From: Weeksellaceae bacterium
GTDB taxonomy: Bacteria; Bacteroidota; Bacteroidia; Flavobacteriales; Weeksellaceae
Direction: 5' to 3'
Length of the DNA stretch: 64,000 nucleotides
NCBI GenBank assembly: GCA_022013695.1
Contig: JAKLPS010000022.1
Span: 3,809 to 67,808, forward strand
Of the stretch, positions 40,047 through 58,777 are shown in pieces. The notes under the pieces are model-generated. The model searched no databases, had not been told where the DNA came from, and saw nothing but the letters and a program-made list of their open reading frames with translations. Each line of letters starts with the position of its first letter. The stretch's first letter is position 1. A program made the position numbers and the translations under genes.

Positions 40047-40429
40047 TAAGAATAATTTTCGAAATATTGATTCAGTAATTTGTGTTCTTCCAGTAAATTT
40101 TCGTGTAGCTCCTGTTGCCGTTCCTGCAAATTTTTATGATGTTCCTGTATTTTAACAAGTTTGGCATTCAACAGATTCAATTTATTAATGAAGTCATTTC
40201 CTCTTTTTTCGACGTTCTTAATAATGTATGAGCAGCTTGCCTCTTCAATATTTTTCAACACATTATCTTTAAACTCACTGAAATGCTTTTCCAATTTATA
40301 GATTTCAAGTTCCCTTTCTAGTTTTCTATTTTTTTGTTTTTCAAAAATTATATCTAAAACCACTAGCACAAGCATTGTAAGTAATAATGCGATATAAATA
40401 TTTTTCACATTGTCAATTAAGTATTCCAT
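40046..40429 (-). CDS. hypothetical TM plus coiled-coil protein
   Basis: 127 aa with one TM helix and a charged coiled coil. Its stop is adjacent to the coupling-protein start. Confidence 0.5.
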   Translation of the reverse strand: MEYLIDNVKNIYIALLLTMLVLVVLDIIFEKQKNRKLERELEIYKLEKHFSEFKDNVLKNIEEASCSYIIKNVEKRGNDFINKLNLLNAKLVKIQEHHKNLQERQQELHENLLEEHKLLNQYFENYS

Positions 40430-40439
40430 AATAAAAAAA

Positions 40440-41309
40440 TTAAAAGGTATCGGCTTTTAGAATTTCAGAATAGTTGACCTTCATTTCGATGGTTCTTCCG
40501 GAGAGTTGCTCTTCAATGAGGCGAATCATCATCACTTTACTGTTGGGGTAGGTGAATTTTTTGAAAACATAAATATTTCTGAAATTTTTTCTGAAGTGTT
40601 TTTGGGGATTGAGTTGTAAAATGGGCGTCAGATCTACACTTTGGTTGTTTGTTGCTTTATGGATTTTTTTGTCTTCTAATGAGAATTTTAAATCTTCAAT
40701 ATCATAGCTCAGATTAGAATTATTCTTGATGGTCATATCTAAAAAGATGTAATCACTTATCACATAGACATTGTTGAGTTGAAAGCTGAGTTTTAGATTT
40801 TTCTCTTCTCTGATTGGATTTTTCTCAGATTTTTTTTGAATAATATCCATCGCAAATTTTCTCAGTTCAAGATTAGAGAACACCATTTTATCAAATTCTA
40901 CAGGCTGCATCGCTTCGGGCTGTATATGAATATTGGTAATCGTATTGAGGTTATCCTGATTTCGATAAACAACTTTGTATTGTGCAATGAAAGATTGTGC
41001 GACAACGGTAATGATCCCAATAGTATTTCCATTAAAAAAAACGGAAGGTATATTGATTTTTCCTTTCTCGTCAGAATCAGGATGATCTGTGATCTTTATC
41101 CTGGCAATGTTTGTAGCAGGCAAATCTCCAGTCAGTTTTTCTGTTGACAAATCCACGTACTGAATGGGTTCCGGCGAAATGATATGCAGGTTGATACCTT
41201 CGGTAATTTCAATCTCAGGTAAATCGGAAACAATCTGTTCTTTGGTTGCAGTTTGAGCCGTGAAAAATTGAGCTATGAATATTAAAAGGGTGTATAATAA
41301 AGTTCTCAT
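40440..41309 (-). CDS. traN: conjugative transposon protein TraN
   Basis: 289 aa with a signal peptide. The PIQYVDLS segment and its position after traM match TraN (DUF4138). Confidence 0.75.
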   Translation of the reverse strand: MRTLLYTLLIFIAQFFTAQTATKEQIVSDLPEIEITEGINLHIISPEPIQYVDLSTEKLTGDLPATNIARIKITDHPDSDEKGKINIPSVFFNGNTIGIITVVAQSFIAQYKVVYRNQDNLNTITNIHIQPEAMQPVEFDKMVFSNLELRKFAMDIIQKKSEKNPIREEKNLKLSFQLNNVYVISDYIFLDMTIKNNSNLSYDIEDLKFSLEDKKIHKATNNQSVDLTPILQLNPQKHFRKNFRNIYVFKKFTYPNSKVMMIRLIEEQLSGRTIEMKVNYSEILKADTF

Positions 41310-41313
41310 TGTT

Positions 41314-42528
41314 TTATTTTTTTTGTTGGTTTTGTGAATCTTTCAATTGTTTTTCGTCGATCAAAAAGACATATGAGTTGTATTTCAGTTTTGCTTTATT
41401 TTCTTTGATCAGATTGGCGATAGATTTGGAGGTTGATGTGAACAGGCTGCTTCCGATGCTTGAGAAAAATCCTTTTCCGCCCATATCCATCTGTGTTCCT
41501 TGAACTGAGTTGCTACCCATTTCCCTCATCATATCTCTAAAAACACTTTGTGGAACGTACAATCCTTTCATCCCATCTACATCGTAAATTGATAAATTAA
41601 CAGGATAGATTTCTCCTTTTGTGAATACAGAAACAATATTAAGATTGACCCGTTGCATCGAAAATCCTGAGATTTGTCCGTATAAAATAGAACCTTTGCT
41701 TATTTTTTTGTTCCCAACAAAGATGTCTTCCAATAATCGGAACCTAATCCTGCTTCCAAGAAAGCCTTTGTTGTTTTCGTCAATGACTGCTTTGATAAAG
41801 CTGTTATCTTTTTCTTTATAGAAAGCATTGAATTCACTGTTGATTCCGGATTTGCTCACATTGAAAGTTGAATTAAGAAAATCTTCCATTTTCTCTTTAT
41901 TGGACTTCAGTCTCTGTTCTGCGGCGAGTTTACTTTGATACTCAGGGTCACGGGATTTTTCTAAAGAATCCATCACCAGCATTTGTTCTTTCATATATTT
42001 GACAGGGTCTGGTTGGACACTTTGTGTCTTTTCTTTAGGTGTATCACCGTATTTATCATCTTGGTTTCTGTAGGATTTGTCATTCAGCATTTTGATGATT
42101 TCAGATGATCTATTGTAATCTTTATCGTCCCTTTGTGATTGATTTGGTTTGTAATAGGAGGACTGATTTCCTTTTGCCTGGTATCCGTTTTGTCTGCTAT
42201 TGACTGCTTTTAGTGAATCTATTTTTCTTTTTTGCGCTAATGACAATTGGTCATCATAGTTTAATAAACTATCCTCTTCTTTATCCAAACCACCAAGCAT
42301 CGTTCTGTTATCCTCTTTTTTGAAAAAAGCATCATACGCATCATTTTTGGTCATAATGGAATCCTGCGTTTCGCCCAATGAAAGCGACAATTCTTTTGGT
42401 TTATCTTTTTCAGACGTATCTTCTTTGACAAACTGCGCTCCTACATAGGCAAAAAGAAAAAGAAACGGTAAAGCCAGAAGTGGCAAAACATATTTTTTTT
42501 CTTTAAAATTTATTTTTTTAATGTCCAT
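41314..42528 (-). CDS. traM: conjugative transposon protein TraM
   Basis: 404 aa with an N-terminal TM helix and a polar linker. Size and position between traL/K and traN fit TraM. Confidence 0.7.
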   Translation of the reverse strand: MDIKKINFKEKKYVLPLLALPFLFLFAYVGAQFVKEDTSEKDKPKELSLSLGETQDSIMTKNDAYDAFFKKEDNRTMLGGLDKEEDSLLNYDDQLSLAQKRKIDSLKAVNSRQNGYQAKGNQSSYYKPNQSQRDDKDYNRSSEIIKMLNDKSYRNQDDKYGDTPKEKTQSVQPDPVKYMKEQMLVMDSLEKSRDPEYQSKLAAEQRLKSNKEKMEDFLNSTFNVSKSGINSEFNAFYKEKDNSFIKAVIDENNKGFLGSRIRFRLLEDIFVGNKKISKGSILYGQISGFSMQRVNLNIVSVFTKGEIYPVNLSIYDVDGMKGLYVPQSVFRDMMREMGSNSVQGTQMDMGGKGFFSSIGSSLFTSTSKSIANLIKENKAKLKYNSYVFLIDEKQLKDSQNQQKK

Positions 42529-42871
42529 ATTTTAATTTTTGGTATTGGTTAAACAGGTAGTCAATTCGTAAGCTGTCTTCTTTTTTCAGAGTGTTTTGGT
42601 CTCTTTTTACTTTTAAAGCTTTCAGTTCGTTCACAATTTTTTCCATCTCTTTATCATTATTTAAGGATGGATTTTGACTCATCTTACTCTTAGAATAGAG
42701 GACCGGAGGTCTTATTTTAAATGCTGTTTCGGAAGGGAAAAAGACACCTTGAATGAGAGACCCTATAAATGAAACCGACAGTAGAATCATTGAATACGTG
42801 AAGAATTTCTTCGGATTTTGAACTACCCACTGCAGCCATTTCTGACCTTTTTTTTTAAATGTAGTTTCCAT
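42518..42871 (-). CDS. small membrane protein in the TraL position
   Basis: 117 aa with one TM helix, located between traK and traM. Confidence 0.5.
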   Translation of the reverse strand: METTFKKKGQKWLQWVVQNPKKFFTYSMILLSVSFIGSLIQGVFFPSETAFKIRPPVLYSKSKMSQNPSLNNDKEMEKIVNELKALKVKRDQNTLKKEDSLRIDYLFNQYQKLKYGH

Positions 42872-42873
42872 TT

Positions 42874-43488
42874 TTAGTAAGAGTTTTTATTTTGATTGGA
42901 TAGTTCTTCGTTATTGATGATTCGCCAGTTTTTAAGGATCACACCGTGAGGATTATTGGGACTTCTGATGATGTCTTCAAAGAAACCTTCGGTGATGAGC
43001 TTTCTGGTAATGACAGAAGATTTTCTTGTGATCATTTGTTTCCCGAAAAAATGAAATTTCTTCTGTTCCATATTGAGTGCAATTGAATCGGTATGGATGC
43101 TTACCATTGAACTGGAGGCGATGATCTGATTGTAAAATCCTTTTTCCTTTAAGTTGGTATATTCTTTTTTTCCGCTGTCATCAATGAGATACAATGACTT
43201 TTGAATATTATCCTTGATATAGGTATCATCGGGAGCAAGTGTGAAAAACAACCTGTGGAATAATTCTATTTGAGCTTTGTATTCTACAGGTCGGTTCAAT
43301 AATACATCGGTTTGCTTGGCAAGTACCGGAACGCCATTGTCTAAAATGTAAATTGATTTTCTGGAATCCTCGATCATTCTGTATGCAAAAAAAAATCCCG
43401 CAATAACAATGAAAACAGCAAAAGCAATGGCAGATAATGAAACGACCTTGTTGATCTTGATTCTTTGTTCTATATTTTTGATAAGCAT
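42874..43488 (-). CDS. traK: conjugative transposon protein TraK
   Basis: 204 aa with an N-terminal TM helix followed by SIYILDNGVPVLA. Size and position fit TraK. Confidence 0.75.
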   Translation of the reverse strand: MLIKNIEQRIKINKVVSLSAIAFAVFIVIAGFFFAYRMIEDSRKSIYILDNGVPVLAKQTDVLLNRPVEYKAQIELFHRLFFTLAPDDTYIKDNIQKSLYLIDDSGKKEYTNLKEKGFYNQIIASSSMVSIHTDSIALNMEQKKFHFFGKQMITRKSSVITRKLITEGFFEDIIRSPNNPHGVILKNWRIINNEELSNQNKNSY

Positions 43489-43511
43489 TTTGTTTTGGTA
43501 TTTTTTAAAGG

Positions 43512-44744
43512 TTATTTTCCGTTTTTCATCGCTTTCTGAACTCTTCCCGAAGCGGAACCTGCTGCGCTTGCTGCTACTGAAGCACCTCCTGTTTTGGCAG
43601 CCAATATTGCTGTTTTAGCACTACTCGCCATTTTTCCTGCGGCACTTTTCATTTTCGTCATTGCTCCGGCTCCTCCTGCTGAAACAATACTGTCGGCAAT
43701 AGTTGGAGTCATTAAAACCCCGATGCCTGTTACAACATAGGCAACACAGGTAAAGAGCTGATTGTAGATCATTCCCGAATTACTCACATAGACCATTACA
43801 GCGTCTAAGTTGGTAATCGTTCCGTTGGATAAAAGTGTATCATACCTTTCAATCTCCATTGTATAGCCTGAAGCAATTAATTGCTGACCAATATTGATGA
43901 TGGTGTAGGCAACAAAAGTGTAAAGGTTAATATTGATGAACTTGGACACCCAGCTATATAAAGAGCTTTCAAATCCAGGTACAAGAGCCATCCCAACGGC
44001 TATCGGGCCTAAAATAATCAGGATGTAAGCCCATATTTTTTGAATGAAGAAAATGAGATAAACACAAATCCTCAGAACGGAAAGACAAACAAACTCAATG
44101 AGTTCTGCCACTAATTTCTGCATTTGGAATTCCATTCTTATCGACCATTCCTTGATGGGCTGAATGAGTTTATCCAATCCCTCACTGATGTCAAACCAGG
44201 AATCATCTGCATCTTCGGTAGTGTTTTCAATAACTTCCTGCTTCGCATCTTCTTCCGCTTTCAGTTTTATGACAGCATCGAGCAATTGCTGCTGCTTCTT
44301 AAATCTCTCGACCCTTAAGTCGTTAACTTCTGATTCTATCTCGCTGAAAATTGAAATTCCGGGTTCGGCAATGGCCTCAAATGGTGCTTGAATCATACTG
44401 ACAAATCCACTCCAATAAACAAGCGTAAATCCTATAAGAATTGGTTTCAGCATTGGGGTAATTTCCCACTCCCTGTCTCCGGCGGCCATTTGCCAACCCA
44501 TATACCCGAGGTACATAAGAGCGCCTAAACCGCCTATTGCTTTTCCTACCAAAGCAGAACCGGCAGCACTATCTTGTACGCTATTATCCAGCTTTGTAAA
44601 AACTTCCATAAACCATTTCTCAAAAGCACCGTCACCTTTTAAAAATTGGAGTAGATTGCTGTAATCACTGTCAGTTTGGGCAAACCCCATCACCGGCAAT
44701 ACTATTGCCAAAAGGCAAAAAATTAATGTTATTGTTTTATTCAT
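43512..44744 (-). CDS. traJ: conjugative transposon protein TraJ (VirB6-like polytopic protein) with Ala/Gly-rich tail
   Basis: 410 aa. GKAIGGLGALMYLGYMGWQMAAGDREWEITPMLKP resembles the TraJ N-region. It has multiple TM helices. Confidence 0.75.
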   Translation of the reverse strand: MNKTITLIFCLLAIVLPVMGFAQTDSDYSNLLQFLKGDGAFEKWFMEVFTKLDNSVQDSAAGSALVGKAIGGLGALMYLGYMGWQMAAGDREWEITPMLKPILIGFTLVYWSGFVSMIQAPFEAIAEPGISIFSEIESEVNDLRVERFKKQQQLLDAVIKLKAEEDAKQEVIENTTEDADDSWFDISEGLDKLIQPIKEWSIRMEFQMQKLVAELIEFVCLSVLRICVYLIFFIQKIWAYILIILGPIAVGMALVPGFESSLYSWVSKFININLYTFVAYTIINIGQQLIASGYTMEIERYDTLLSNGTITNLDAVMVYVSNSGMIYNQLFTCVAYVVTGIGVLMTPTIADSIVSAGGAGAMTKMKSAAGKMASSAKTAILAAKTGGASVAASAAGSASGRVQKAMKNGK

Positions 44745-44746
44745 TT

Positions 44747-45577
44747 TTAAAATCGGTGTTTATAGTGGTTCATTATATTTTGAACAATCTGCCCGTCTGA
44801 TGCCGGTGTCCACGCAGGTGGCAAAGCATAATTTGAATGGTTTTTCAGAATATTTTTGTAATCTGTAAGAAGTGTTGTCTTATTATTATACTTCCTTAAT
44901 TCCCTTACAAATTTTCTCCATCTGATAAGAGTTTCGTGATACATAATGAATCGTTTTCCCCTTGGCATATCCATACTTCTGGACATTGAATATTTTTCTT
45001 TGATGAGATCAAGTTCTTCCTGAAGCCGTGTTATAGTACCTGTATTACTGAGTGTTTCAAAAGTTTGCTGGTCTTTCAGCCGCCATTCGATAAAGTTTTG
45101 AGGGGTATCAGGAAATTCAGTAATAGGTTTTAACATTCGTTTGTAATACAAAAGCCAAAGAGGATCGGCATCGACAGTAGCGGAAGTCCAATGGGCAAAA
45201 TCCTGAACGCTTCTTTTATAAATGGTATCCGAAGCAGCTTTTATCTTTTTTGCTTCTTCCTCCTGATACTTCAATTGAGCAAATCTTTGATTTTGCACCC
45301 CTGTCGCTTTTAATGGTCGAATGTCTTCCCCATCTTTATAATCCCTATTGATTTTTGGAGACCACATTCCCCAAACCGTCGCGTAGGCAAAATTGGTCTG
45401 AATACCTAAAAAGTATTTTGGATAAGGACGCCAGTCTCCCCAATCTTGAAAGACCATTCTTTTATGCTGGGCAACAATGGAAGGGTCATTCAATCTTTTT
45501 ACACTCAACTGTCCAAACACAGTGGCTGCGATTAGGAGAAACTGAAGTAGACTGATTTTTTTTAGTAGATTTTCCAT
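44747..45577 (-). CDS. secreted hypothetical protein, member 4 of a C-terminal-motif family
   Basis: 276 aa with a signal peptide, ending in DGQIVQNIMNHYKHRF. Confidence 0.6.
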   Translation of the reverse strand: MENLLKKISLLQFLLIAATVFGQLSVKRLNDPSIVAQHKRMVFQDWGDWRPYPKYFLGIQTNFAYATVWGMWSPKINRDYKDGEDIRPLKATGVQNQRFAQLKYQEEEAKKIKAASDTIYKRSVQDFAHWTSATVDADPLWLLYYKRMLKPITEFPDTPQNFIEWRLKDQQTFETLSNTGTITRLQEELDLIKEKYSMSRSMDMPRGKRFIMYHETLIRWRKFVRELRKYNNKTTLLTDYKNILKNHSNYALPPAWTPASDGQIVQNIMNHYKHRF

Positions 45578-45582
45578 AATAT

Positions 45583-46251
45583 TTAATTAAAGATGTAATG
45601 GTATTTAGTGATGATGTCGCCAACAATGGCTCTGTCTATATTGATGTAATTACGAAGCACCGGAACCTGATACAGGTAAGGGATTTTCCTGGCATTCTCT
45701 AATCGCAGATTGATGTATATAATGTTTCCGTTGATATTTCTTACTCGTGTAAATATCTTTTCAATCAGCATTTCTCTATCCATCGCATCCATCAGAAAAT
45801 CTTTATCTTCATTGAGAATATCTTGGGTAACTTCCTGCTGAAGTTTGATCGTTTGCTTGCCTATCTCAACATAATATTTTGAAATGAGTACCGAATATTC
45901 AGGATGCTGTGCGGATAGATCCAGCATTTTATTGGAGTTCGTTACTATTTTACCCAAATACTGATAGAGATAAATGAGTTTTTTGCTCTGGGTCAAGGCT
46001 GAATTCACATTTTTGAGCTGTTGATAGATGTATTCCTGAATGGCGATGATCTGCGTGATTTTATTGTTGATATCATCATACAGTTCTTTTTGCTTTTCAT
46101 ACGAATCCAAAAAAGTCTGTTCACTTCCCAATCGAACGCCGTGATTTACGGTGATCTGTGATAAAAGTTTGTCATTGATAACTATCTGCTGGCTTTTTAC
46201 GGATGCAACAGTGAAGAATAAAAGTCCAAGAAGAATTGCTTTTTTGCTCAT
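45583..46251 (-). CDS. secreted coiled-coil protein (TraI/DUF4141-like?), family member 3
   Basis: 222 aa with a signal peptide, ending in YINIDRAIVGDIITKYHYIFN. Confidence 0.6.
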   Translation of the reverse strand: MSKKAILLGLLFFTVASVKSQQIVINDKLLSQITVNHGVRLGSEQTFLDSYEKQKELYDDINNKITQIIAIQEYIYQQLKNVNSALTQSKKLIYLYQYLGKIVTNSNKMLDLSAQHPEYSVLISKYYVEIGKQTIKLQQEVTQDILNEDKDFLMDAMDREMLIEKIFTRVRNINGNIIYINLRLENARKIPYLYQVPVLRNYINIDRAIVGDIITKYHYIFN

Positions 46252-46319
46252 ATCATTATTATTTTATCATTAAGAAATTTGTGAAATACTTTGGCTCTGC
46301 CGAATCTTCGATTTCATTT

Positions 46320-47042
46320 CTAAAAAGACTTGATGTTATTCATTATGCTTTCAACTACTTGTTTATCCCTATTGACATAATATTGAAAGGCTCTTTTGTT
46401 ACGTTTTACTTTGGCTTTAATATCCCGTATTTTCAAAAGCATATGCGTAGAATTTCTGCTCAATATTTTTACTTCGCCTAAAGCATAATCCAATAATACT
46501 TTGCGTTCCGATTTCTCCATTTGATTGATAGCTCCATAAGACAAAATGATCCCGGTAACCAGCCGTGTTACCATTTGCAGATCATCCACAAACTGAACCT
46601 GAGAAGGCAAAAGGGCTATAATGGAATAAGGAGCATCGTTTATTTCATTGATAATAGCAGTCTGATTGTTTGTTATTTTTGTTATTTCCCTGCTCATTGC
46701 TATTCCTGTCGGTATTGCCTGGATGGCAAATGAAACTATCCTCAATCGATCCTGAATTTTGGTAATCTTGTCTTTGAAGTTGTTCCATTGGGTTCTATTG
46801 GCGGTTTCCACAGTCGCATTCAGCGTTTGCTTTTCCCGCATCTCTTTTTGCCTGTCGTGTTCTTTCATTGTGGCATTGATCTCCAAATCCATCATCGGAA
46901 ATGATACATTTTCCTGTTGCCAAGCTGGTGTGGAACCGCCACCGGAAGAAGTTAAAACGACGTATATTGCAGAAAAAAGCAAACTTAAAAACAACTTATT
47001 TTTGCCTTCATAAAGTCGGCGAATCTCGTTCCTCGATTTCAT
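46320..47042 (-). CDS. membrane-anchored hypothetical protein, family member 2
   Basis: I chose the internal Met (cat at 47040-47042), which avoids overlap with the upstream gene. It gives MKSRNEIRRLYEGKNKLFLSLLFSAIYVVL and the protein ends in YVNRDKQVVESIMNNIKSF. Confidence 0.55.
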   Translation of the reverse strand: MKSRNEIRRLYEGKNKLFLSLLFSAIYVVLTSSGGGSTPAWQQENVSFPMMDLEINATMKEHDRQKEMREKQTLNATVETANRTQWNNFKDKITKIQDRLRIVSFAIQAIPTGIAMSREITKITNNQTAIINEINDAPYSIIALLPSQVQFVDDLQMVTRLVTGIILSYGAINQMEKSERKVLLDYALGEVKILSRNSTHMLLKIRDIKAKVKRNKRAFQYYVNRDKQVVESIMNNIKSF

Positions 47043-47052
47043 CTTTTTGGTT

Positions 47053-47706
47053 TTAAAAATTCCTTTTATACCGATCCATAATATCCTCAACAATCGCTTT
47101 GTCTGTATTGATGTAGCCTGCAAATGGATTGATGGAATTCCAGAATCCCAATCGGTTTGCTTTCTCCAATCTTAATTTGATGGCCAAAAGCCACAACTTC
47201 AGATTTTTGACATTACCGGAAATATTATGAAGGATTTTGTAGCGGTCTCCTGCAGTAGCCAGATTCAACTCTCCGGATGCGAGAATATCAGATACATCGG
47301 TCACGATCTTTAGACTTTGCTCGTAGGTTTTTTGGGAAGCTTTCACCCCAAAAATTGCGTATTGCGGATGTGCTGATGCTAATTGTCCTACTTGTGCTGA
47401 GTAATTGTAACACTTATTGAGTTCCGAGTAGATCTCCTGCACCTGAATACCATTTTGCAGTGTCCCGGAAACTTCTTTTAAGCCCTTCAGAATTTTATTC
47501 TGAATATCGTTAGCTGCAACCATCTGGGTTCCGACCCATGTCTGGGCATCTTTTAGTTTTGAAGTTTCTTCGATGACCTCATTCTGTTTGGCTTTTAGAT
47601 TTTCAGAATATAGAATCATTGCTGCCGTTACCGTAGGATCGATGTAGGTGTTTTGAGCACACAATAAACTTCCAAATCCTAAAAATAGAATGCTAAACTT
47701 TTTCAT
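47053..47706 (-). CDS. secreted coiled-coil protein (TraI/DUF4141-like?), family member 1
   Basis: 217 aa with a signal peptide, ending in YINTDKAIVEDIMDRYKRNF. Confidence 0.6.
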   Translation of the reverse strand: MKKFSILFLGFGSLLCAQNTYIDPTVTAAMILYSENLKAKQNEVIEETSKLKDAQTWVGTQMVAANDIQNKILKGLKEVSGTLQNGIQVQEIYSELNKCYNYSAQVGQLASAHPQYAIFGVKASQKTYEQSLKIVTDVSDILASGELNLATAGDRYKILHNISGNVKNLKLWLLAIKLRLEKANRLGFWNSINPFAGYINTDKAIVEDIMDRYKRNF

Positions 47707-49513
47707 ATTGTTTTTTATTTATTAATTCTGAAAAACTGATATTTCGGTCTTCTAATTCCTGTGAGATGGTCTTGAAGACATTCTTCCCTTTATGTTCTTT
47801 TTTCATCATTCCGTAAAAGGAATTGATTTTTTGATCCAGTGGATTTTGATATAAATTCACGAGCGATACAAGATTTTCGAGACTGTCTCCGAAGATTTTC
47901 AAATCACCAACTATTCTGCGCAATGCTTCATCATAATTGCCATATTTCTGAACATAGTATTCAACGGCTGACTTTTCCGGTTTTTCTGTGGTATAAGTCA
48001 AATATTGTTCAAGCGAAACTTCATTTCCGTACACTTCTCCTTTTGAACCTCGTTTCAGATAAAACTCCTTGAACCGACTTCGCCCGAATTTATTATTCAG
48101 ATTGTTGATGGTAAAAATCTTGTTTTGCTCTACTTTATTGAGTGAAAGCAATGAAGCGATCTTGTCAAAGTTGTCTTTGAACTTCGTCTGGTCAAGCAAT
48201 ATAAAAGTGTCCGAGTTATTTATTATACTGTCTTTTACGACTGCATTCCCGATAATATCATCCAGTTCCTGAGTAACAACTACCGCTTCTCCCCAAAATT
48301 TCCGTACTGTTTTATATAAATAAAGAATATAACCTCCCATTAATTTACTCGCAATGGCTTTCCACGCTTCTTCTATGATGAGAGCTTTTCTGCGGTCTTT
48401 TCTAAGGCGCATTTTCTGAATAAAAGTGTCCATTATAATCAACGTCACTATTGGAAACAGCTTCGGATTGTCCTTTACGTTATCGATCTCAAAAACAATG
48501 AAAGATTCGTCAAACAGTTTATTATCTGCACTTTCGTTTAAAGTCGTTCCGTACCTTCCGCCTTTGTAAAAATCTTTCAGCACAAATAAAAAGGTGCGCA
48601 GATTGAATTCCTTCTCTATAATGTTGTGTTTTTTATTACTCAGGTAAATAGGAAGAAATTGATCGCAATAATCATAAAACCCATTGAACGAAAGTTCTGT
48701 TACAACCAGCTTTTCTTCCAGTTCTTTTATTTTTCTGATAATGACTTTTCTAAAGGATTCATTCAATTCTTCTGCTGATCTGGATTGCCTGATGATGTCA
48801 TTAGATTTCATTAAAGTCAGCTGCGTCTCATTGTATATTTTCCTTCTTTCTTCATCGTTCAGCGTGTCGTACGCTTCATAGACTTGATAGAAATTGTCAC
48901 TTTCATAATCCGGATTATTGATGTTTTTATCAGGATGATAAAATTTTAATAATTTTCTTCCGGCTTCCTTGATTTCATTAGAACTGGCATCGAATGTAAT
49001 CCCCAGAATGTCATAATAGTTTTGATGTCCTTTGGCTTCATTCTCATATTCTGTGAATAGATCTTCTTCTTGAATGTTATATTTATTGAGATATAAAATA
49101 AGTTCTTCCGAAGTTTTATTTTGATACCACTCTTGTCCTGAGTTAAAATACTGATGATAATACGACATCAACACATTGTCTAATATGGACTTTTGTGCTG
49201 ATGACATTGAAGAGTCAGGACCTTGCCAAATCAGGAAGATCAGGTTGGTTAAAAATTCGATTTTTTCGATATTGAACTCTTTCTTATCCATCAGAAAAGG
49301 ATTCATTGTGATCGGTTTTTCTTCGGTGTACTGAATGTATCTTCCTCCTTTGTATTTACAAGTTCCTGAATAAGAATCTCCTGTATCAACAATGACTACA
49401 TCATAATTGTAGGTCAGATACTGCTCGATGATATTATTCATTAAAAAACTCTTGCCTGACCCACTGGGTCCTAAAACAAACTTATTCCTGTTGTTTATTC
49501 TTCCTGTTTTCAT
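47693..49513 (-). CDS. traG: TraG (VirB4-type conjugation ATPase), C-terminal part, carrying an inserted J-domain
   Basis: GRINNRNKFVLGPSGSGKSF is the Walker A motif and ALIIEEAWKA is Walker B-like. The insert NYYDILGI...KFYHPDKN...EAYDTLNDEERRKIYNE lies at 48827-49021. The 32 codons upstream (49514-49606) are in frame and look like coding sequence. Confidence 0.85.
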   Translation of the reverse strand: MKTGRINNRNKFVLGPSGSGKSFLMNNIIEQYLTYNYDVVIVDTGDSYSGTCKYKGGRYIQYTEEKPITMNPFLMDKKEFNIEKIEFLTNLIFLIWQGPDSSMSSAQKSILDNVLMSYYHQYFNSGQEWYQNKTSEELILYLNKYNIQEEDLFTEYENEAKGHQNYYDILGITFDASSNEIKEAGRKLLKFYHPDKNINNPDYESDNFYQVYEAYDTLNDEERRKIYNETQLTLMKSNDIIRQSRSAEELNESFRKVIIRKIKELEEKLVVTELSFNGFYDYCDQFLPIYLSNKKHNIIEKEFNLRTFLFVLKDFYKGGRYGTTLNESADNKLFDESFIVFEIDNVKDNPKLFPIVTLIIMDTFIQKMRLRKDRRKALIIEEAWKAIASKLMGGYILYLYKTVRKFWGEAVVVTQELDDIIGNAVVKDSIINNSDTFILLDQTKFKDNFDKIASLLSLNKVEQNKIFTINNLNNKFGRSRFKEFYLKRGSKGEVYGNEVSLEQYLTYTTEKPEKSAVEYYVQKYGNYDEALRRIVGDLKIFGDSLENLVSLVNLYQNPLDQKINSFYGMMKKEHKGKNVFKTISQELEDRNISFSELINKKQYEKV

Positions 49514-49606
49514 CGGTAAATCCGAAGGATCTACTTTTAGCGGAACACCCTGTCTGTCTGTAAATCTCAGGTAGAAATTGGATTCTTCATTGACCGGGTA
49601 ACTTTC

Positions 49607-50758
49607 TTAAAAAAAAAAACACAAGGCCGCTTCGCTTGTCGTCATAAATAGATCGTATTCCCTAAGTTCTGTTCCATTGCCCGGAATGGCTGATCGCCAG
49701 AGTTCTAACTGGTTGTAGGCATTTTTAGAAACAATAATTCCTTTCGTGAAAAGCTTGTTTTCAATCATCGACTGGATATTTTCCATTTTCTCCAATGTGT
49801 GTGCTGAAAAAAGGATGGAAAAATGAGCATTGACGACGAGCTGTCCATCGGTTGCAATGTTATGAAGCAGGGTCTGAATTTCATCTGCTATAATCGCGTT
49901 GGACGGAGAATTGTTCGCCGCGCCTTCGTGTTTTTTCTTTTTTTTATCAAGCTCCCTTTGCTGTTGTGCCTGAAGGGGAATGGTAATGATCTGATTGTAG
50001 ACAATGGTCTCGTAGTCTTCCAGTTCATTGATGAAACTAAAATTGTCAACCGCCGTCTCAGCTGCAGCTCCGTTACCTCCTAAAACTGAGTAAGGCTCAA
50101 TTTCTGAAGGCAGATCAATGTTTTCTACGTCAACATAGGCAATGTTTTTCACAAACCTATTTCCGATCTGCAAAAATTCGTTGGTGCTTTTTATATTATC
50201 AAAAGTTGGAGTTTCTGTAAACTGCATCGACAGAACTCCCGAAATGTAGTAATCAAAATCTTTCTCAAATAAAAACTCAGGTTCACAATTATTCTGTTTC
50301 AAAAGCATCAATACTTTCTGGCACTTATCCCGTAGTTCCTTATAACTTTTATCCGAAAAATGATAATGCTTAGTTTTCTTTTTCAGTTTGTCATCGATAA
50401 TATCCGTGAAGAATAGCACGGTTTCGATGGTTTTAAAAAGCCTGCCCTCAAAATGTTCTGAATATTTTTGCTGTAGAAACTGATTGGACTGTTCTGCGGT
50501 GTATCTTTTTTTAGAAAAAATGTCGAGCTTCTGGACAATTCTTCCTTCACCAATAATCGAGACTACCTGATTTAAGACCGTATGAAAATGGAGGTACGTA
50601 TCCGGATCTGCTGAATACTGCTCTACAATATTTTTTATCCTAATACCAATAATAGGATTTCCATACTGTCCGAAAAGAACATCGAAATCCCAATTGAAAT
50701 CTTTTGCATAATCATACCCGATAAAAGGGATGTTAAATGCTTGTTTTTCCTTTTTCAT
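49607..50758 (-). CDS. traG: TraG (VirB4-type conjugation ATPase), N-terminal part, ended by an in-frame TAA
   Basis: 383 aa ending in ...TSEAALCFFF then stop. The stop at 49607-49609 is in the same frame as the downstream ATPase ORF. Confidence 0.8.
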   Translation of the reverse strand: MKKEKQAFNIPFIGYDYAKDFNWDFDVLFGQYGNPIIGIRIKNIVEQYSADPDTYLHFHTVLNQVVSIIGEGRIVQKLDIFSKKRYTAEQSNQFLQQKYSEHFEGRLFKTIETVLFFTDIIDDKLKKKTKHYHFSDKSYKELRDKCQKVLMLLKQNNCEPEFLFEKDFDYYISGVLSMQFTETPTFDNIKSTNEFLQIGNRFVKNIAYVDVENIDLPSEIEPYSVLGGNGAAAETAVDNFSFINELEDYETIVYNQIITIPLQAQQQRELDKKKKKHEGAANNSPSNAIIADEIQTLLHNIATDGQLVVNAHFSILFSAHTLEKMENIQSMIENKLFTKGIIVSKNAYNQLELWRSAIPGNGTELREYDLFMTTSEAALCFFF

Positions 50759-50769
50759 ATTGAACTTAT

Positions 50770-51105
50770 TTATTTTTTATTCGTCATATGGAACCTTTCG
50801 GTTTCATCATTCTTTAAAAGTCTTTTGTTGGTTAATTTTTTTGGAAAGATCAAGATCTGATCGAAATTTTTGGTCTTGTCATATAGCCCATATTTGTCCT
50901 GTCTTTTGAAGATCAGATAAACACCTCCTGCGGTTATTGCGAGTCCGAATAAAGAACCTAGTAATCCAAACTTCGATAATACCAGCGCCAAAATGACTCC
51001 TGTGCCAATGACACCCACTGCGTAAAAAATGTATTTCCCTTTCAGTCCGAAAAACACAAGGGGTTTTTTGAGCCCCTTGTATAAATAAAATCCCATCTTA
51101 GGCAA
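50770..51105 (-). CDS. traF: conjugative transposon protein TraF (DUF4133-like)
   Basis: 111 aa with YKGLKKPLVFFGLKGKYIFYA and two TM helices, located between traE and traG. Confidence 0.7.
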   Translation of the reverse strand: MPKMGFYLYKGLKKPLVFFGLKGKYIFYAVGVIGTGVILALVLSKFGLLGSLFGLAITAGGVYLIFKRQDKYGLYDKTKNFDQILIFPKKLTNKRLLKNDETERFHMTNKK

Positions 51106-51418
51106 AGAATGCTGTTACGAATTCCGGAACTACCAGCAGGAAGATCATTGCTCCGCCATAACCAAGGATCTCTTTGTTGACATCCTGGTCGCCATTCGTC
51201 CATTTGTTATACACTCTCAAACCTCCAATGAAACCGACCAATCCGCCCACTGCTTTTAAAATAAGTTTGATAGGATCCCAATAATCCTTAATGTCGTTGG
51301 CGGCGTTCGAGATCGCTGTTGCACCGCCTTGTGCGAAAGCAGGTGTTAGTGCCATCACTACAAAAGCGAGGGTTAGAATTTTTTTCATCATTTGGTGTTT
51401 TTTGAATTTTTGATTCAT
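51098..51418 (-). CDS. traE: conjugative transposon protein TraE (DUF4134-like, pilin-like)
   Basis: 106 aa with a signal peptide and two hydrophobic helices flanking VYNKWTNGDQD. Confidence 0.7.
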   Translation of the reverse strand: MNQKFKKHQMMKKILTLAFVVMALTPAFAQGGATAISNAANDIKDYWDPIKLILKAVGGLVGFIGGLRVYNKWTNGDQDVNKEILGYGGAMIFLLVVPEFVTAFFA

Positions 51419-51538
51419 AATAAGTGTGCTTTTAGAAGGTTAATTAATTGGTTTATTTTTGGTTTTTGGGCATAGAATACCCTGCATCGTATTTTTAACA
51501 CGTTGTTTGTTAGCGAGTTATATTATTTGGAGTAAAGA

Positions 51539-52132
51539 CTACATCGTGGAATGGTAAACTTTGTGTCCGTCATAGTTGGCAACCATTTGAACCAAGGTTT
51601 CAGAAAGATTGAGCATCTTCTTCCATTCTTTTATTCTGGAATTTTCTGTGGCTTTGTCTTTAATAATTGGGCTTTGGGGAATCACATCGTAAGGTTTTTG
51701 GATTTCCTGTTCTTTTGATACTTTTTCTTTTTGGTTAGGATACGTTTCACTTGATTCAGAATTTTCAGAATTTTGTAGGTTTTCCTTTTCGGTGGAATCC
51801 TTTTTTGGTGCATTATCCAATTCATCTAAATCTTGTTCAGATTCAAATCGTTCCCTCAAATACTCCAGATCTTGTCTTTCTTCCGTTTCTTCGCTTGGAA
51901 TAGGAGTTAATTCTTTTCTGTTGAATGATTTTGGAGTTGTGATATTTTCAACATCTTCAATCCCAATAGTTGCAGTAAGGGCTTCGTACTGCTCGGAGAT
52001 GGCGGACAAAGAAAATTCCTCAGTCTCTTCTTTGTAAATTGCTTTTTCTTTTTTGAGGAAGAGATCGTACAAGATGTTACCTGCATAATACATCAGGTAA
52101 ACCGCCAGTATGCTAAGTGAAATTTTAATCAT
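51539..52132 (-). CDS. hypothetical TM-anchored acidic protein
   Basis: 197 aa with an N-terminal TM helix and an E/S/K-rich body, downstream of the ParA-like gene. Confidence 0.5.
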   Translation of the reverse strand: MIKISLSILAVYLMYYAGNILYDLFLKKEKAIYKEETEEFSLSAISEQYEALTATIGIEDVENITTPKSFNRKELTPIPSEETEERQDLEYLRERFESEQDLDELDNAPKKDSTEKENLQNSENSESSETYPNQKEKVSKEQEIQKPYDVIPQSPIIKDKATENSRIKEWKKMLNLSETLVQMVANYDGHKVYHSTM

Positions 52133-52167
52133 TTTTTATGTTTTATTTAGTGGATATTTTTCGGTGT

Positions 52168-52851
52168 CTAATCTTTGGCTTTTTCCTTCTTTTTCAGAAT
52201 TTCTATTTTGATCTTTGAGTTTTCATTGATATGCTTTAAAAGTTCATCGAGTGTATTTTCTACGGCATATTTTTGCTTGCCAGCCAGGTTTCTGGTATTA
52301 ATAGTTTGCAGGATGTTTCTCTTGAATACTGGACTTGGCAGCAGCATTCCATATTTTGCCAGCTCAATGTCCATTGCTTCCTGATTTAGGTATTTGTATC
52401 CTTTATCATATTTGGAACGGATAAATATTCTTTCGGCCTCGCTTTCCAATAATCCCAGCATATTGATAAAAACCAACGTTGATTTTACAGATACATCGGA
52501 ATATTCAAATGGGATCACGATAAAATCGCTGTATATCAATAAGTCGCTGTATTTAGCATCAAGTGTTCCTGCCAGATCAAAGAGATTGATCTCCTCGCTT
52601 TCTTTCAGATCAATAAGAGTATCAAAGTCCGAAAAAGACTGCCCATCATCTTCACCAATAATCTCAACATCGTACAATTTTGGAATTTCCAACACTTCAT
52701 CTTCTTTCCATTTGTAGTAAAAGGATTTCTGATAATCAAAATCAAACACATTGATTTTTCTTTCGGAATTAGTGGAAATATAATTGGCTAAAGCAATCGC
52801 CAATGTTGTTTTTCCGGTTCCTCCTTTTTGGGTGGCAAAAGTGATGATCAT
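52168..52851 (-). CDS. ParA/MinD-like ATPase (TraA position)
   Basis: 227 aa with the deviant Walker A motif TQKGGTGKTT. Confidence 0.8.
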   Translation of the reverse strand: MIITFATQKGGTGKTTLAIALANYISTNSERKINVFDFDYQKSFYYKWKEDEVLEIPKLYDVEIIGEDDGQSFSDFDTLIDLKESEEINLFDLAGTLDAKYSDLLIYSDFIVIPFEYSDVSVKSTLVFINMLGLLESEAERIFIRSKYDKGYKYLNQEAMDIELAKYGMLLPSPVFKRNILQTINTRNLAGKQKYAVENTLDELLKHINENSKIKIEILKKKEKAKD

Positions 52852-52920
52852 TGGTTGGTTGATGGTTTTTGTTTGATAATTATTAGCTGTAAGTTTTTAT
52901 CGGAAGCCGGAACTTAGGCC

Positions 52921-54414
52921 TTAACGCCTCTTCTTCCTTCGTTTCTTGAGTTCGTTTTCAGCAGGGTCTTTTGCCGTTCCTGAACTTTTCATCCATTCAA
53001 ATAGCATTTCGTTGACGGCTTTGTTTAATTCTGTTTTTTTATTATTTTCAGTCCGGTTTTCTGTCTGCACTTCATTTATGCCTATGGGATTTAGAAATTT
53101 TTGATATTCCTTTTCTCCGATTAATGGTTGAAGTTCACCCACGTAATGGAATCTGGTATGAACAGCATACAGCTTTCCGTCTTCAGCAGTCGTTATAGAA
53201 ATATCTTTTTTTTCATCATTTGTGTTTTTGTTATTTCTAATAAAATCCTTTACTTCAAACTGGACTTTTCGGTAGGTTTCCAAATCTTTCTTCCCTCGGT
53301 TTTCAAAAAGCATAAAGTCCTTAATCTCTGCTTCCGGATATTGCTTTTTCAAAAACTCCAGCAGTATTTCTCTTGATTCCTGATTTGGAATGTTATAATC
53401 TTTTAAGATTTCGAAAAGCTTTTTATCCAAAGTTTCGGAAGTGAATTCAAATAATTCATTCATTTTCAAAATCTCACTCCCTTTGTAGACGATTCCTGTT
53501 TTATGGTCTATCAACGTGTAACCAAAAGGTTTTAAACCTTCTTTTTGATGAAATACAATGTCGATTCCGAAAACATCTTTCAACTTTTTCTGAAGCTCAC
53601 TTTCAAATTCAATTTTTGATTTTGAAAGATTTTCTCTGTCAGCTATCTTTTCTTGTGGTAACATTGATTGACTTCGCCTATTGTCTTCCACTTTGAAAAC
53701 TTTGTTGGAATACAGTTCCTTATATTTATTCAGAATGGCTTTAATCTGTCTGGCTCTGCTGTCACTTTTACTATTGTCGAAAACAATTTGATTCCCTGAA
53801 AGTGTTCGCTGTATGACTCCGTTTTTTAAAATGCTATAAAAATTTTCATCATTTGTGTTTCTGTTTATTTTATAACCATTTCTATGGAGCAAAGTTTCCA
53901 ACTGACTGAACGAACTTATTTTGTAATTTAGAAGTTTGTCCAATTCTGCTTCTGGACTCTGGCCGTACAATTTTCCCATTGTATTACTTAATGCCTTTTG
54001 AGCATTAAGCCTCTCGTAACTGTCATCGATCTTCTTTCCGGATTGCTTATCAACCCTTGTGGAAACAATGTGGACGTGATTATTATCTGTGTCCTTATGA
54101 AATACAACAATGAAAGGTTGTGTCCCGTATCCCATTTCATTCATAAAACCTTCTGCAACATTTTTCAGTTCTTCTTTGCTGTGCTCCTGAAACTTGGTTG
54201 AAATGACTGAGTGAAATTGGGGTTTCTTTACTTTTTCGTTTTTTGAAATTGATTTTAAATAATCCCGAACCTCCTTCTGACTACTGGCTTCATTGATGAA
54301 CGAAGGAAAATTTTTCATCAGCATCAATTCCCCAGTTCCTTTATTCACTTTTTTATCGTTGTAATTGACTCCCGAAAAGCTGGAACTCGCCGGTTTCATT
54401 ATTTTAACGATCAT
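52921..54414 (-). CDS. relaxase/mobilization nuclease
   Basis: 497 aa. FHKDTDNNHVHIVSTRVD is the HxDxxxxHxH relaxase histidine triad. Confidence 0.85.
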   Translation of the reverse strand: MIVKIMKPASSSFSGVNYNDKKVNKGTGELMLMKNFPSFINEASSQKEVRDYLKSISKNEKVKKPQFHSVISTKFQEHSKEELKNVAEGFMNEMGYGTQPFIVVFHKDTDNNHVHIVSTRVDKQSGKKIDDSYERLNAQKALSNTMGKLYGQSPEAELDKLLNYKISSFSQLETLLHRNGYKINRNTNDENFYSILKNGVIQRTLSGNQIVFDNSKSDSRARQIKAILNKYKELYSNKVFKVEDNRRSQSMLPQEKIADRENLSKSKIEFESELQKKLKDVFGIDIVFHQKEGLKPFGYTLIDHKTGIVYKGSEILKMNELFEFTSETLDKKLFEILKDYNIPNQESREILLEFLKKQYPEAEIKDFMLFENRGKKDLETYRKVQFEVKDFIRNNKNTNDEKKDISITTAEDGKLYAVHTRFHYVGELQPLIGEKEYQKFLNPIGINEVQTENRTENNKKTELNKAVNEMLFEWMKSSGTAKDPAENELKKRRKKRR

Positions 54415-54770
54415 TGTCCGAGCATAGAATATATTTTAATAAAAATGTCATTCTGCTTTATCTTCAAATCAGCTATTTCAGATAACTTGTTAGAAAAATC
54501 TTGCAGGTCTGCTGCGCTGATAAATTTTTTAGCATTTGCAATTTTTGCGATCTGATTGATGTTGGTTTCTATTTTCACGAATAGATTATCTTGTTTTTCA
54601 ATGAACGCTAATACTATTCTCCTCTCATCATCCAAAATCCTGTTTTCTACAGAATTGATAATTAGACTTGTCATAGAGATTTTCTTTTCTGAACATATCT
54701 TCCTCCAGTATTTCTTTTTTTGATTGTTGATCCTGATAACTATAATCCCGTCTTTTTCATCGGTTTCCAT
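54411..54770 (-). CDS. MobC-like relaxosome accessory protein
   Basis: 119 aa, small, overlapping the relaxase start by 4 nt. It has an RHH-like N-terminus. Confidence 0.55.
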   Translation of the reverse strand: METDEKDGIIVIRINNQKKKYWRKICSEKKISMTSLIINSVENRILDDERRIVLAFIEKQDNLFVKIETNINQIAKIANAKKFISAADLQDFSNKLSEIADLKIKQNDIFIKIYSMLGQ

Positions 54771-57391: not shown

Positions 57392-57718
57392 ATGGGAGCA
57401 ACTAAGACCGAACATTTTACAGATAAGCAAAATCAAATTGCAATAATTGCAAAAGCATTGGGGCATCCTGCGCGAATAGCGATTATTGAGTATTTGATGA
57501 AAGTTAATGAGTGTATTTGTGGTGACATCGTGAATGAATTACCGTTAGCTCAACCCACCGTCTCTCAGCATTTGAAAGAACTGAAAAATGCAGGGATTAT
57601 AAAAGGTAACATTTCCGGAAACGCTATCTGCTATTGTATAGACGAAAAGACTATCGAAATTCTAAACACTTATTTTTCCGCAATAGTACAAACTGTTACC
57701 AAAGTAAAATGCTGTTAA
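57392..57718 (+). CDS. arsR: ArsR/SmtB-family metalloregulator
   Basis: ALGHPARIAIIEYLMKVNECICGDIVNELPLAQPTVSQHLKELKNAGII contains the wHTH and the CxC metal site. I prefer the ATG at 57392 over the TTG at 57386. Confidence 0.85.
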   Translation: MGATKTEHFTDKQNQIAIIAKALGHPARIAIIEYLMKVNECICGDIVNELPLAQPTVSQHLKELKNAGIIKGNISGNAICYCIDEKTIEILNTYFSAIVQTVTKVKCC

Positions 57719-57774
57719 GCATTTTTTTACTCGTATTTATCGCAATATTGCATTTAGACTATAAAGAATTTATT

Positions 57775-58248
57775 ATGAAATTATCAGAAGTAAAACAAAT
57801 TTTGCCAACATTGGAAAATGTTGAATTTCAATTAGAAAATGGAACTTATGTTCCAGAACATTTTCACGTTACAGAGGTGGGAATGATTACCAAAAACTTT
57901 ATTGATTGTGGCGGTGTCATCCGTTCAGAGAAGGTTGTGAACTTTCAGCTTTGGAATGCAGATGATTTTGAACATCGTTTGAAGCCTAACAAATTGCTCA
58001 ACATTATCAAACTTTCTGAAGATAAATTAGGAATCGAAGATTTTGATATTGAAGTTGAATATCAAAGTGAGACAATCGGTAAATATGATTTAGAATTTAA
58101 CGGGAAAACATTTATTCTAAAAAATAAGACTACAGCTTGTTTAGCTCAGGACGCTTGTGGAATTCCTACGGAAAAAGAAAAGAAAAACTTATCCGAACTT
58201 AATGTAAATCAAAACAATTCTTGCACACCAGGTGGCGGATGTTGCTAA
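57775..58248 (+). CDS. DUF6428-like protein with Cys-rich C-terminus
   Basis: The internal ATG at 57775 gives MKLSEVKQILPTLENVEFQLENGTYVPEHFHVTEVG... and the protein ends in NSCTPGGGCC. Confidence 0.6.
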   Translation: MKLSEVKQILPTLENVEFQLENGTYVPEHFHVTEVGMITKNFIDCGGVIRSEKVVNFQLWNADDFEHRLKPNKLLNIIKLSEDKLGIEDFDIEVEYQSETIGKYDLEFNGKTFILKNKTTACLAQDACGIPTEKEKKNLSELNVNQNNSCTPGGGCC

Positions 58249-58258
58249 TTAAATTGCT

Positions 58259-58750
58259 ATGGAAATAAAGCCGATTACCAAAGATAATTTTTCAGAGTTG
58301 TTAGAAATCTATGGTCAGGGATTAGCTACTAATATTGCCACTTTTCAAAATGACTTGCCAATATGGCAAGAGTGGGATAAAGGACACCTTAATTTCTGCA
58401 GAATCAGTATATATGAAAATAACGAAATGCTTGGTTGGACTGCATTATCTCCTGTCTCCAGCAGATGTGTTTATTCAGGCGTAGCAGAAGTCAGTGTTTA
58501 TGTAGCAACAGATGCAAGAGGAAAAGGTGTTGGTAAAATATTGCTGAATGAATTGATTGAGCAGAGTGAGTCAAATGAAATATGGACATTACAATCCGGG
58601 ATATTTTCAGAAAACCAAGGCAGTATAAAACTACACGAGAGATGTGGTTTTAGAATCGTTGGCTACAGGGAAAAAATTGGAAAGAAGAATGGGGTTTGGA
58701 AGGACAATATATTGATGGAGTACAGAAGTAAGATTGTCGGAATAGATTAA
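58259..58750 (+). CDS. GNAT N-acetyltransferase (PAT/ArsN1-like)
   Basis: 163 aa with DARGKGVGKILL (acetyl-CoA motif), located in the ars operon. Confidence 0.7.
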   Translation: MEIKPITKDNFSELLEIYGQGLATNIATFQNDLPIWQEWDKGHLNFCRISIYENNEMLGWTALSPVSSRCVYSGVAEVSVYVATDARGKGVGKILLNELIEQSESNEIWTLQSGIFSENQGSIKLHERCGFRIVGYREKIGKKNGVWKDNILMEYRSKIVGID

Positions 58751-58777
58751 AAATAAAAATTATAAAATCAATAAAAA

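Follow-up and report, generated by a model that had tools for sequence, protein, structure and literature searches.

The 64,000-nucleotide stretch of Weeksellaceae bacterium DNA analysed here (contig JAKLPS010000022.1, positions 3,809 to 67,808; hereafter the window) carries a conjugation module in which the gene traG encodes a VirB4-type ATPase with a complete J-domain nested between its Walker A and Walker B motifs. The traG product belongs to both the TraG/VirB4 family, as judged by profile, fold, and synteny, and the J-domain superfamily. J-domains act as partners of Hsp70 chaperones, and the conservation of the TraG sequences makes it probable, at a rough estimate of 0.75, that this J-domain is a functional one that recruits Hsp70.

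The J-domain and its place in the TraG ATPase

The J-domain lies in the C-terminal open reading frame (ORF) of traG (Table 1), whose translation is identical to the one quoted in an earlier reading of the window made from the sequence alone (the sequence-only reading), including NYYDILGITFDASSNEIKEAGRKLLKFYHPDKNINNPDYESDNFYQVYEAYDTLNDEERRKIYNE at ORF residues 165–229. The Pfam profile PF00226 (DnaJ) aligns with residues 165–228 over its full length (profile positions 1–63 of 63; E = 1.3e-17; 64 bits, with a gathering cut-off of 27.8). When PDB chains were searched with phmmer, about 30 solved J-domains ranked at the top, with C. elegans dnj-12 as the best (4.6e-13), accompanied by human DNAJB and DNAJA members, E. 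coli DnaJ (1xbl), and the DnaK-bound J-domain of DnaJ (5nro_B); the VirB4 and TrwK structures 4ag5 and 7o41 came after them. The identity to the J-domains of bacterial and eukaryotic DnaJ amounts to ~35–47%, the J-domains of Sec63 and DjlA are also among the sequence matches, and NCBIfam reports a likeness to the J-domain of TopJ. The match is far above chance. DnaJ and CbpA (class A/B J-domain proteins) share with TraG the HPD motif and the conserved helix II/III signature, but their glycine/phenylalanine-rich (G/F) region, zinc-finger, and C-terminal substrate- or client-binding domains were not detected in the traG ORF, where the J-domain alone matches DnaJ profiles. TIGR02349, the equivalog profile of class A/B DnaJ, scores 62 bits against a cut-off of 377 and is covered at positions 1–83 of 354. 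By its domain content, the TraG J-domain is of the class C type, without a G/F or zinc-finger region.

On either side of the J-domain the ORF reads as ordinary TraG. The family profile PF19044 (P-loop_TraG) matches with E = 3.4e-123 and is cut into two stretches by the insert, and TIGR03783 gives 373.8 bits (cut-off 261.55), compared with 469.5 bits for the intact 1022-residue homologue P0001, to which the ORF is 95% identical. Walker A lies upstream, and the TraG motifs ELSFNGFYDY (residues ~271–280), FIVFEID (at 338), and LIIEEAW (Walker B) follow downstream, with E381, E382, and W384 of the latter invariant in alignment A2. When P0001 is compared with a canonical 821-residue TraG from a Hymenobacter plasmid, ~145 extra residues appear between ‘..SYY’ and ‘ELSFN’, with the J-domain in the middle of the insert, and there is a C-terminal extension of ~55–65 residues too. 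The span from ‘YY’ to ‘LSFN’ is 10–26 residues long in canonical TraGs as opposed to ~159 residues in the J-bearing clade. These alignments show that the segment is an insertion into the ATPase and not a separate gene. The sequence-only reading had claimed a J-domain with the invariant HPD tripeptide (put there at ~48931–48939; from the translation, residues 193–195 at 48929–48937), flanked by ordinary TraG motifs and inserted into the ATPase, and on all of these points the profile searches and the alignment with J-less TraGs agree with it.

A single-chain AlphaFold2 (AF2) model of the C-terminal ORF, built with an alignment of 71 sequences, reached a mean per-residue confidence (pLDDT) of 84.9 and a predicted template-modelling score (pTM) of 0.74. 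Judged from the helix positions in the model (166–170, 178–191, 205–219, and 221–238; regional pLDDT ~70–89), the segment is predicted to adopt the four-helix J-domain fold with an antiparallel helix II/III hairpin and the HPD in the loop between these helices. The flanking linkers are less confident (pLDDT ~69–72 at residues 151–170 and below 50 at 234–244). Along the modelled chain, Walker A is followed by beta strands and helices 82–97 and 105–124, then by the insert with helix 129–160, the four J helices, the linker 234–244, and helix 247–268, and finally by helices 276–291 and 305–315 and the strands with FIVFEID and LIIEEAW. Foldseek places the core in the VirB4 fold, with the Thermoanaerobacter VirB4 C-terminal domain (4ag6/4ag5; E ~1e-9, target-normalised TM-score 0.65) as well as TrwK/VirB4 of the assembled R388 type IV secretion system (T4SS; 8rtd, 7o43) and the coupling protein TrwB (1e9s) among the PDB matches. 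When PDB sequences were searched with a profile, the part of 4ag5 that aligned was limited to residues 24–101, the Walker A region.

According to this model, the J-domain hangs off the loop between helices 2 and 3, at the tip of the helical, all-alpha-like subdomain that separates Walker A from Walker B, and the linkers on either side are consistent with a tethered J module. The all-alpha domain of TrwB is turned towards the cytoplasm (PMC3969286), and by analogy the J-domain of TraG should be exposed to the cytoplasm at the membrane-distal end of the ring.

Conservation, distribution, and origin of the insert

The HPD tripeptide is present in 245 of the 247 J-bearing TraG proteins that were fetched, and one of the two exceptions is a truncated fragment. 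Among 14 inserts that are 27–55% identical, the residues invariant between the TraG flanks are Y83, L86, R102, H109, P110, D111, A130, and Y131, all eight of which fall inside the J-domain match. The same picture emerges from 144 unique J-segments, in which the equivalents of E. coli DnaJ Y7, L10, R22, K26, H33-P34-D35, A53, Y54, L57, R63, and Y66 show a conservation of 93% or more, with conservative K/R exchanges, and the position of DnaJ F47 holds F in 81% and Y in 13%. The basic character of helix II is retained as well: the equivalents of R22, K26, and R27 are K (94%), R (97%), and K/R (87%). Across 63 J-bearing TraGs the mean pairwise identity is highest in the ATPase core (0.69–0.72), lower in the J-domain (0.43), and lowest in the remaining insert (0.24–0.30). 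The HPD and the hallmark residues are therefore kept while the rest of the insert varies, which is the pattern expected if selection preserves an Hsp70-interacting surface, and a canonical J-domain is maintained in TraG under purifying selection.

The J-bearing architecture is not a one-off, as it occurs in hundreds of TraG clusters, from Weeksellaceae, Capnocytophaga, Flavobacterium, Prolixibacteraceae, and Sphingobacterium, down to ~40% overall identity. All 120 of the closest clusters (86–95% identical), which stem from Chryseobacterium, Epilithonimonas, Elizabethkingia, Cloacibacterium, and Empedobacter, carry both PF00226 and PF19044. When the 40%-identical protein P0126 served as the query of a further search, 107 of 115 new proteins had the J-domain, which added Kaistella, Capnocytophaga leadbetteri, C. 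stomatis, and Sphingobacterium siyangense; some of these J-bearing clusters hold hundreds of metagenomic members. Genomes were scanned at one per GTDB species with the pattern L[SD]FN[ST]FY[ED][FY], which excludes the LSFNGFYDY variant of the window and so misses the closest species, and 53 J-domain loci were obtained, every one of them with the HPD. They come from Halpernia, Kaistella, Frigoriflavimonas, Bergeyella, Riemerella, Vaginella, Weeksella, Chryseobacterium, Empedobacter, Epilithonimonas, Capnocytophaga, Flavobacterium daejeonense, Prolixibacteraceae (Draconibacterium, Sunxiuqinia), and Sphingobacterium. Taken together, J-bearing TraG proteins and loci span at least 15 genera in three orders, and copies were found on Chryseobacterium plasmids too. 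One J-bearing TraG with the HPD (L056) sits in a metagenome-assembled genome labelled Fusobacterium ulcerans (JBEBQF010000001.1), which reflects either mis-binning or transfer beyond Bacteroidota.

This distribution also bears on whether the window holds an assembly chimera or a fortuitous fusion of ORFs. The window gene is indeed broken by a stop codon, as such an artefact might be, but a continuous ORF of 1003–1026 residues with the same architecture exists in hundreds of independent assemblies, including complete chromosomes and plasmids. These many intact copies rule out an assembly chimera, and the odds left to an artefact of either kind are negligible.

To delimit the insert among more distant relatives, 1.84 billion representatives at 50% identity were searched with P0001, which returned 437 clusters at E<1e-30, and the 108 representatives of at least 740 residues were aligned. 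About 90 of them have only 10–26 residues at the insertion site, so the segment is not a constant part of all Bacteroidota TraGs; had it been one, this would have spoken against the sequence-only reading. About 10 carry charged helical inserts of 64–156 residues without a J-domain, including the Segatella/Prevotella/Bacteroides type, and three (P0121, P0125, and P0126) have a J-domain with the HPD, as do four fragments (P0124, P0136, P0142, and P0147). Two metagenomic TraGs, P0122 and P0123 (967 and 1003 residues), contain a J-like segment that lacks the HPD and scores 20–21 bits over the whole of PF00226, below the cut-off. The TraG of a Segatella hominis plasmid (L001:1303-4212) exemplifies the J-less charged helical insert of Bacteroidales, which is ~100–150 residues long and located at the same site. 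Because the parts of the insert before and after the J-domain align with this Segatella insert, the comparison suggests that the J-domain was placed into a helical extension of the subdomain. A neighbour-joining tree of the core columns, rough and lacking support values, groups the J-bearing and decayed-J sequences all in one neighbourhood, and this fits a single gain of the J-domain followed by occasional loss of the HPD. The insertion loop itself is, on these alignments, a variable evolutionary hotspot for inserts.

The relatives raise the question of whether the J-fold might merely be a structural helical module that extends the subdomain and has no Hsp70 function. The J-less helical inserts of similar length at the same site in Bacteroidales TraGs would suit such a role, as would the J-like fold that P0122 and P0123 retain without the HPD. 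Against it, the HPD is found in 298 of 300 sequences, proteins and genomic loci included, across TraGs that are only ~40% identical, and the near-invariant positions are the hallmarks of Hsp70 interaction, beyond those of a hydrophobic core. A pure helix bundle would not keep a solvent-exposed HPD loop. Since the HPD is retained, a purely structural role is disfavoured and seems very unlikely.

The interrupted traG copy and its conjugation module

In the window, TraG is not encoded as a single uninterrupted ORF with N- and C-terminal domains. The N-terminal ORF matches PF03135 (CagE_TrbE_VirB; E = 1e-5) and positions 39–396 of TIGR03783 and aligns with residues 1–384 of P0001. It shares its frame with the C-terminal ORF, and the translated region 47693–50758 holds exactly one stop, the TAA at 49607–49609, at the end of a T-run. 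Homologues read CFFFKESYPVNEE here, with K at the position of the stop codon, and intact ones (1018–1026 residues) read EAALCFFFKESYPVNEESNFYLRFTDRQGVPL across the site. The 31 residues that separate the stop from the next ATG include the TDRQGVPL stretch, whose D402, R403, G405, and P407 do not vary among three distant TraGs. Because these 31 residues are conserved, the window copy is most likely non-functional, unless the homopolymer boundary was misread (pseudogene, split gene, or sequencing error).

The T-run reads T11+AA in the window and T10+AAA in ten other species genomes. In the complete chromosome CP199727, which bears the TraG P0006 (L003:2894-2907), it reads T11+AAA, causing a +1 frameshift. 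It reads T9+AAA in a contig of an enhanced biological phosphorus removal metagenome (L084:2004-2015), where traG is, in addition, divided into several ORFs in its N-terminal half; we take this metagenome to be 454-era. Moreover, C-terminal fragments that begin at or just past the T-tract make up 11 of the 120 closest protein clusters. The ORFs downstream of traG in the window match those of the chromosome with P0006 in length, exactly or nearly so. The T-run may be a slippage-prone on/off site or a plain homopolymer sequencing error. Phase variation was not adopted, because the variants come from a presumed 454-era metagenome with further breaks in traG and from an assembly of unknown technology.

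Table 1. Features of the traG region and its conjugation module (window coordinates)
Feature	ORF residues	Window position	Strand	Remarks
traG C-terminal ORF, 606 aa		47693..49513	minus	VirB4-type ATPase domain with nested J-domain; residues 417–1022 of intact homologues
Walker A, GPSGSGKS	15–22	49448..49471	minus	Invariant in alignments A1 and A2
Whole insertion, ~145 aa	~125–270	48704..49141	minus	Pre-J helices, J-domain, flexible linker, long post-J helix (in part from the model)
J-domain	165–229	48827..49021	minus	PF00226 match, PDB J-domain matches, AF2 helices
HPD tripeptide, CAT CCT GAT	193–195	48929..48937	minus	Loop between helices II and III
Walker B, LIIEEAW	378–384	48362..48382	minus	On model beta-strand 375–382
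traG N-terminal ORF, 383 aa		49607..50758	minus	VirB4 N-terminal domain; ends at in-frame TAA
T11 run ending in stop TAA (49607–49609)		49607..49619	minus	Intact relatives have T10+AAA, encoding FFFK
In-frame stretch, stop to next ATG, 31 residues		49514..49606	minus	Conserved TraG residues ESYPVNEESNFYLRFTDRQGVPLKVDPSDLP, lost if translation ends at TAA
Conjugation module, Bacteroidota-type (MPF_B)		38055..54770	all minus	Pfam scans; equivalences to VirB from PMC4027160
MobC		54411–54770	minus	Pfam
Relaxase, MobA/VirD2-type		52921–54414	minus	Pfam
ParA/TraA-like ATPase		52168–52851	minus	Pfam
TraE (DUF4134, VirB2-like)		51098–51418	minus	Pfam
TraF (DUF4133, VirB3-like)		50770–51105	minus	Pfam
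TraJ-like (TrbL/VirB6)		43512–44744	minus	Pfam; several small ORFs between traG and this gene
TraM		41314–42528	minus	Pfam
TraN (DUF4138)		40440–41309	minus	Pfam
Type IV coupling protein (T4CP), VirD4-type		38055–40046	minus	Pfam

The position of traG is that expected in an MPF_B tra operon, after traE and traF and before traJ to traN, and the gene order traE-traF-traG...traJ-traM-traN is the same as in CTnDOT-type conjugative transposons. With the TraG/VirB4 family of that type (TIGR03783, PF19044; 4AG5, TrwK 7O41/8RTD) the protein shares the Walker A and B motifs, the VirB4 C-terminal fold, and the N-terminal domain; it differs from CTnDOT-type TraG by the ~145-residue J-containing insert in the helical subdomain and the ~55–65-residue C-terminal extension. 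In ICEEaIII of Elizabethkingia anophelis, a ‘type III’ integrative and conjugative element (ICE), the relaxase and the T4CP are separated by tra genes, all in one orientation (PMC13019914), and the module in the window has this layout. A tRNA scan for an ICE attachment site found no tRNA in the window. Neither an Hsp70 gene nor a second J-domain was found in the 64-kb window, and the Hsp70 partner must therefore be chromosomal. No match to a third secretion ATPase was seen among the tra-region ORFs scanned.

Several neighbouring genes deserve a brief description. An ORF of 1737 residues (28508–33721, minus strand) combines Toprim-like, Eco57I-type N6-adenine methylase, and SNF2/helicase domains and resembles the ‘polyvalent’ proteins of conjugative elements. 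Proteins of this kind have reportedly been proposed as co-transferred, and the ORF product is a candidate for a large protein transferred by the T4SS. Directly downstream of the coupling-protein gene lies an M23 peptidase gene (37214–38053, minus), whose product might hydrolyse the cell wall for the mating channel. Downstream of traG, two ORFs of ~220 residues (47053–47706 and 45583–46251, both minus) each begin with a signal-peptide-like N-terminus and resemble each other at the C-terminal end (DKAIVEDIMDRYKRNF and DRAIVGDIITKYHYIFN, respectively); they look like paralogues, and neither has a Pfam match. A cargo cluster on the plus strand (57634–60982) adjoins the transfer genes and encodes a DUF6428 protein, a GNAT acetyltransferase, a metallophosphoesterase, and an SBF-family transporter that is possibly ACR3-like.

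Possible roles of the J-domain and their significance

J-domain proteins dock on Hsp70 in its ATP-bound state through helix II and the HPD loop; this triggers ATP hydrolysis and thereby locks Hsp70 onto a nearby polypeptide. By the same steps, the J-domain of TraG would bring DnaK of the host, with ATP bound, to the base of the T4SS, at the end of the TraG ring that faces the cytoplasm. There it would trigger hydrolysis by DnaK, which would then be clamped on polypeptides held beside the motor. Such a recruitment of DnaK had already been proposed in the sequence-only reading; the conservation of the HPD and of the helix II/III residues supports it, while the recruitment itself stays an inference.

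As to what DnaK would do there, our tentative preference is that it unfolds the substrates of the channel or holds them unfolded, that is, the relaxase linked to single-stranded DNA and perhaps further large proteins that are transferred. Unfolding is required of relaxases for passage through the T4SS, and which unfoldase is responsible ‘remains unclear’ (PMC5826034); VirB11 is rare outside MPF_T (PMC4027160). As regards DnaK in conjugation more generally, E. coli donors mutated in dnaK and dnaJ are defective in F conjugation (PMC7762799), which sets a precedent for a requirement for DnaK in conjugation. It is conceivable, though rather doubtful, that DnaK is an integral part of the machine and acts as its missing unfoldase or holdase; it would then be the first Hsp70 hard-wired to a bacterial secretion motor.

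A number of points weigh against the recruitment of DnaK by TraG and the role derived from it. Both the link between TraG and DnaK and the choice of the client are drawn from sequence, and the cytoplasmic exposure of the J-domain follows from the analogy with TrwB and not from a model of the hexamer. The effect of dnaK and dnaJ on F transfer is possibly indirect, as its authors point out (PMC7762799). Furthermore, P0122 and P0123, which are nested among the J-bearing TraGs, have lost the HPD yet keep the insert, and the helical inserts found at this site in the Bacteroidales relatives are J-less, so that stimulation of DnaK must be dispensable for at least some TraGs. Finally, the traG copy of the window is interrupted by the TAA.

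DnaK could alternatively act on the machine, in that it assembles, activates, disassembles, or quality-controls the TraG oligomers or the inner-membrane complex. There are analogies for J-proteins dedicated to one machine, such as auxilin and clathrin, the release of DnaB by lambda P, and TopJ in the terminal organelle of Mycoplasma. A J-domain that has no client-binding domain of its own usually acts on what it is tethered to, and the NCBIfam likeness is to the J-domain of TopJ, which is a machine-assembly J-domain protein. VirB4 occurs in monomer/dimer/hexamer equilibria (PMC3969286), and the chaperone/protein-folding class is enriched among the defects of F donors (PMC7762799). On the other hand, no J-domain is needed for the assembly of canonical TraGs and of all other VirB4s, and no sequence feature marks TraG itself as a client. 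Remodelling of the machine is consequently our second choice after the unfolding of substrates, and we regard it as somewhat unlikely.

Another role that can be envisaged for the J-domain is regulatory coupling, whereby the pool of free DnaK sets the activity of TraG and proteotoxic stress in the donor switches conjugation. The control of sigma-32 by DnaK/DnaJ offers an analogy. The conservation of the HPD would be equally compatible with it, as it speaks for an engaged Hsp70 and not for a purpose, and the loss of the J-domain from inserts that stay in place is what a modulatory add-on would show. Neither a regulatory element nor a stress-linked gene adjoins traG in the window, however, and this purely speculative coupling is considered improbable.

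If the J-domain does recruit DnaK, parallels exist in other transport machines. Sec63 in the endoplasmic reticulum, Pam18/Tim14 of the mitochondrial TIM23 complex, and DjlA in the inner membrane of E. coli likewise have a lone J-domain that is attached to a machine of membrane transport for local activation of Hsp70, although their homology with TraG is limited to the J-domain. Theirs are located on scaffold or membrane subunits, whereas that of TraG lies within the motor ATPase; and Sec63 and Pam18 put Hsp70 on the trans (pulling) side, whereas TraG would, by analogy, put it on the cis side, in the donor cytoplasm. The large T antigen of SV40 and other polyomaviruses also joins a J-domain to a hexameric P-loop translocase, is encoded by a mobile element, and uses host Hsp70 to remodel complexes. 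It differs from TraG in that its J-domain is N-terminal and not nested, its ATPase is an SF3 helicase and not VirB4/FtsK-like, and its host is eukaryotic.

The architecture is not unseen, because databases automatically label some members as ‘DnaJ domain-containing protein’ (NCBI), ‘J domain-containing protein’ (UniRef), or ‘DnaJ-class molecular chaperone...’ (JGI). The J-bearing TraG pointed out in the sequence-only reading is real and turns out to belong to a large, widespread clade that is in part already annotated in this way; that this reading knew of no described VirB4 or TraG with a J-domain agrees with the literature searched. A full-text search, which reached few papers of subscription journals, found none in which a J-domain is brought together with VirB4, TraG, or conjugation, and no characterised VirB4 with a chaperone-recruiting domain was found in the literature. 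A J-domain in VirB4 or TraG is not mentioned in the papers on Elizabethkingia ICEs (including PMC13019914), a 2025 review of T4SSs, or the MPF classification paper (PMC4027160), nor is a J-bearing VirB4 or TraG in the main text of a survey of ~280,000 J-domain proteins.

A J-domain nested inside a P-loop translocase is a new architecture for the catalogue of class C J-proteins, and the large natural clade of J-bearing VirB4 motors provides a clean genetic handle on the role of chaperones in type IV secretion. The hosts of these ICEs and plasmids are Elizabethkingia, Chryseobacterium, Riemerella, Capnocytophaga, and their relatives. As they include opportunistic pathogens and the cargo of the ICEs comprises resistance and defence genes, the J-domain of TraG is a possible target for blocking the transfer of these elements.

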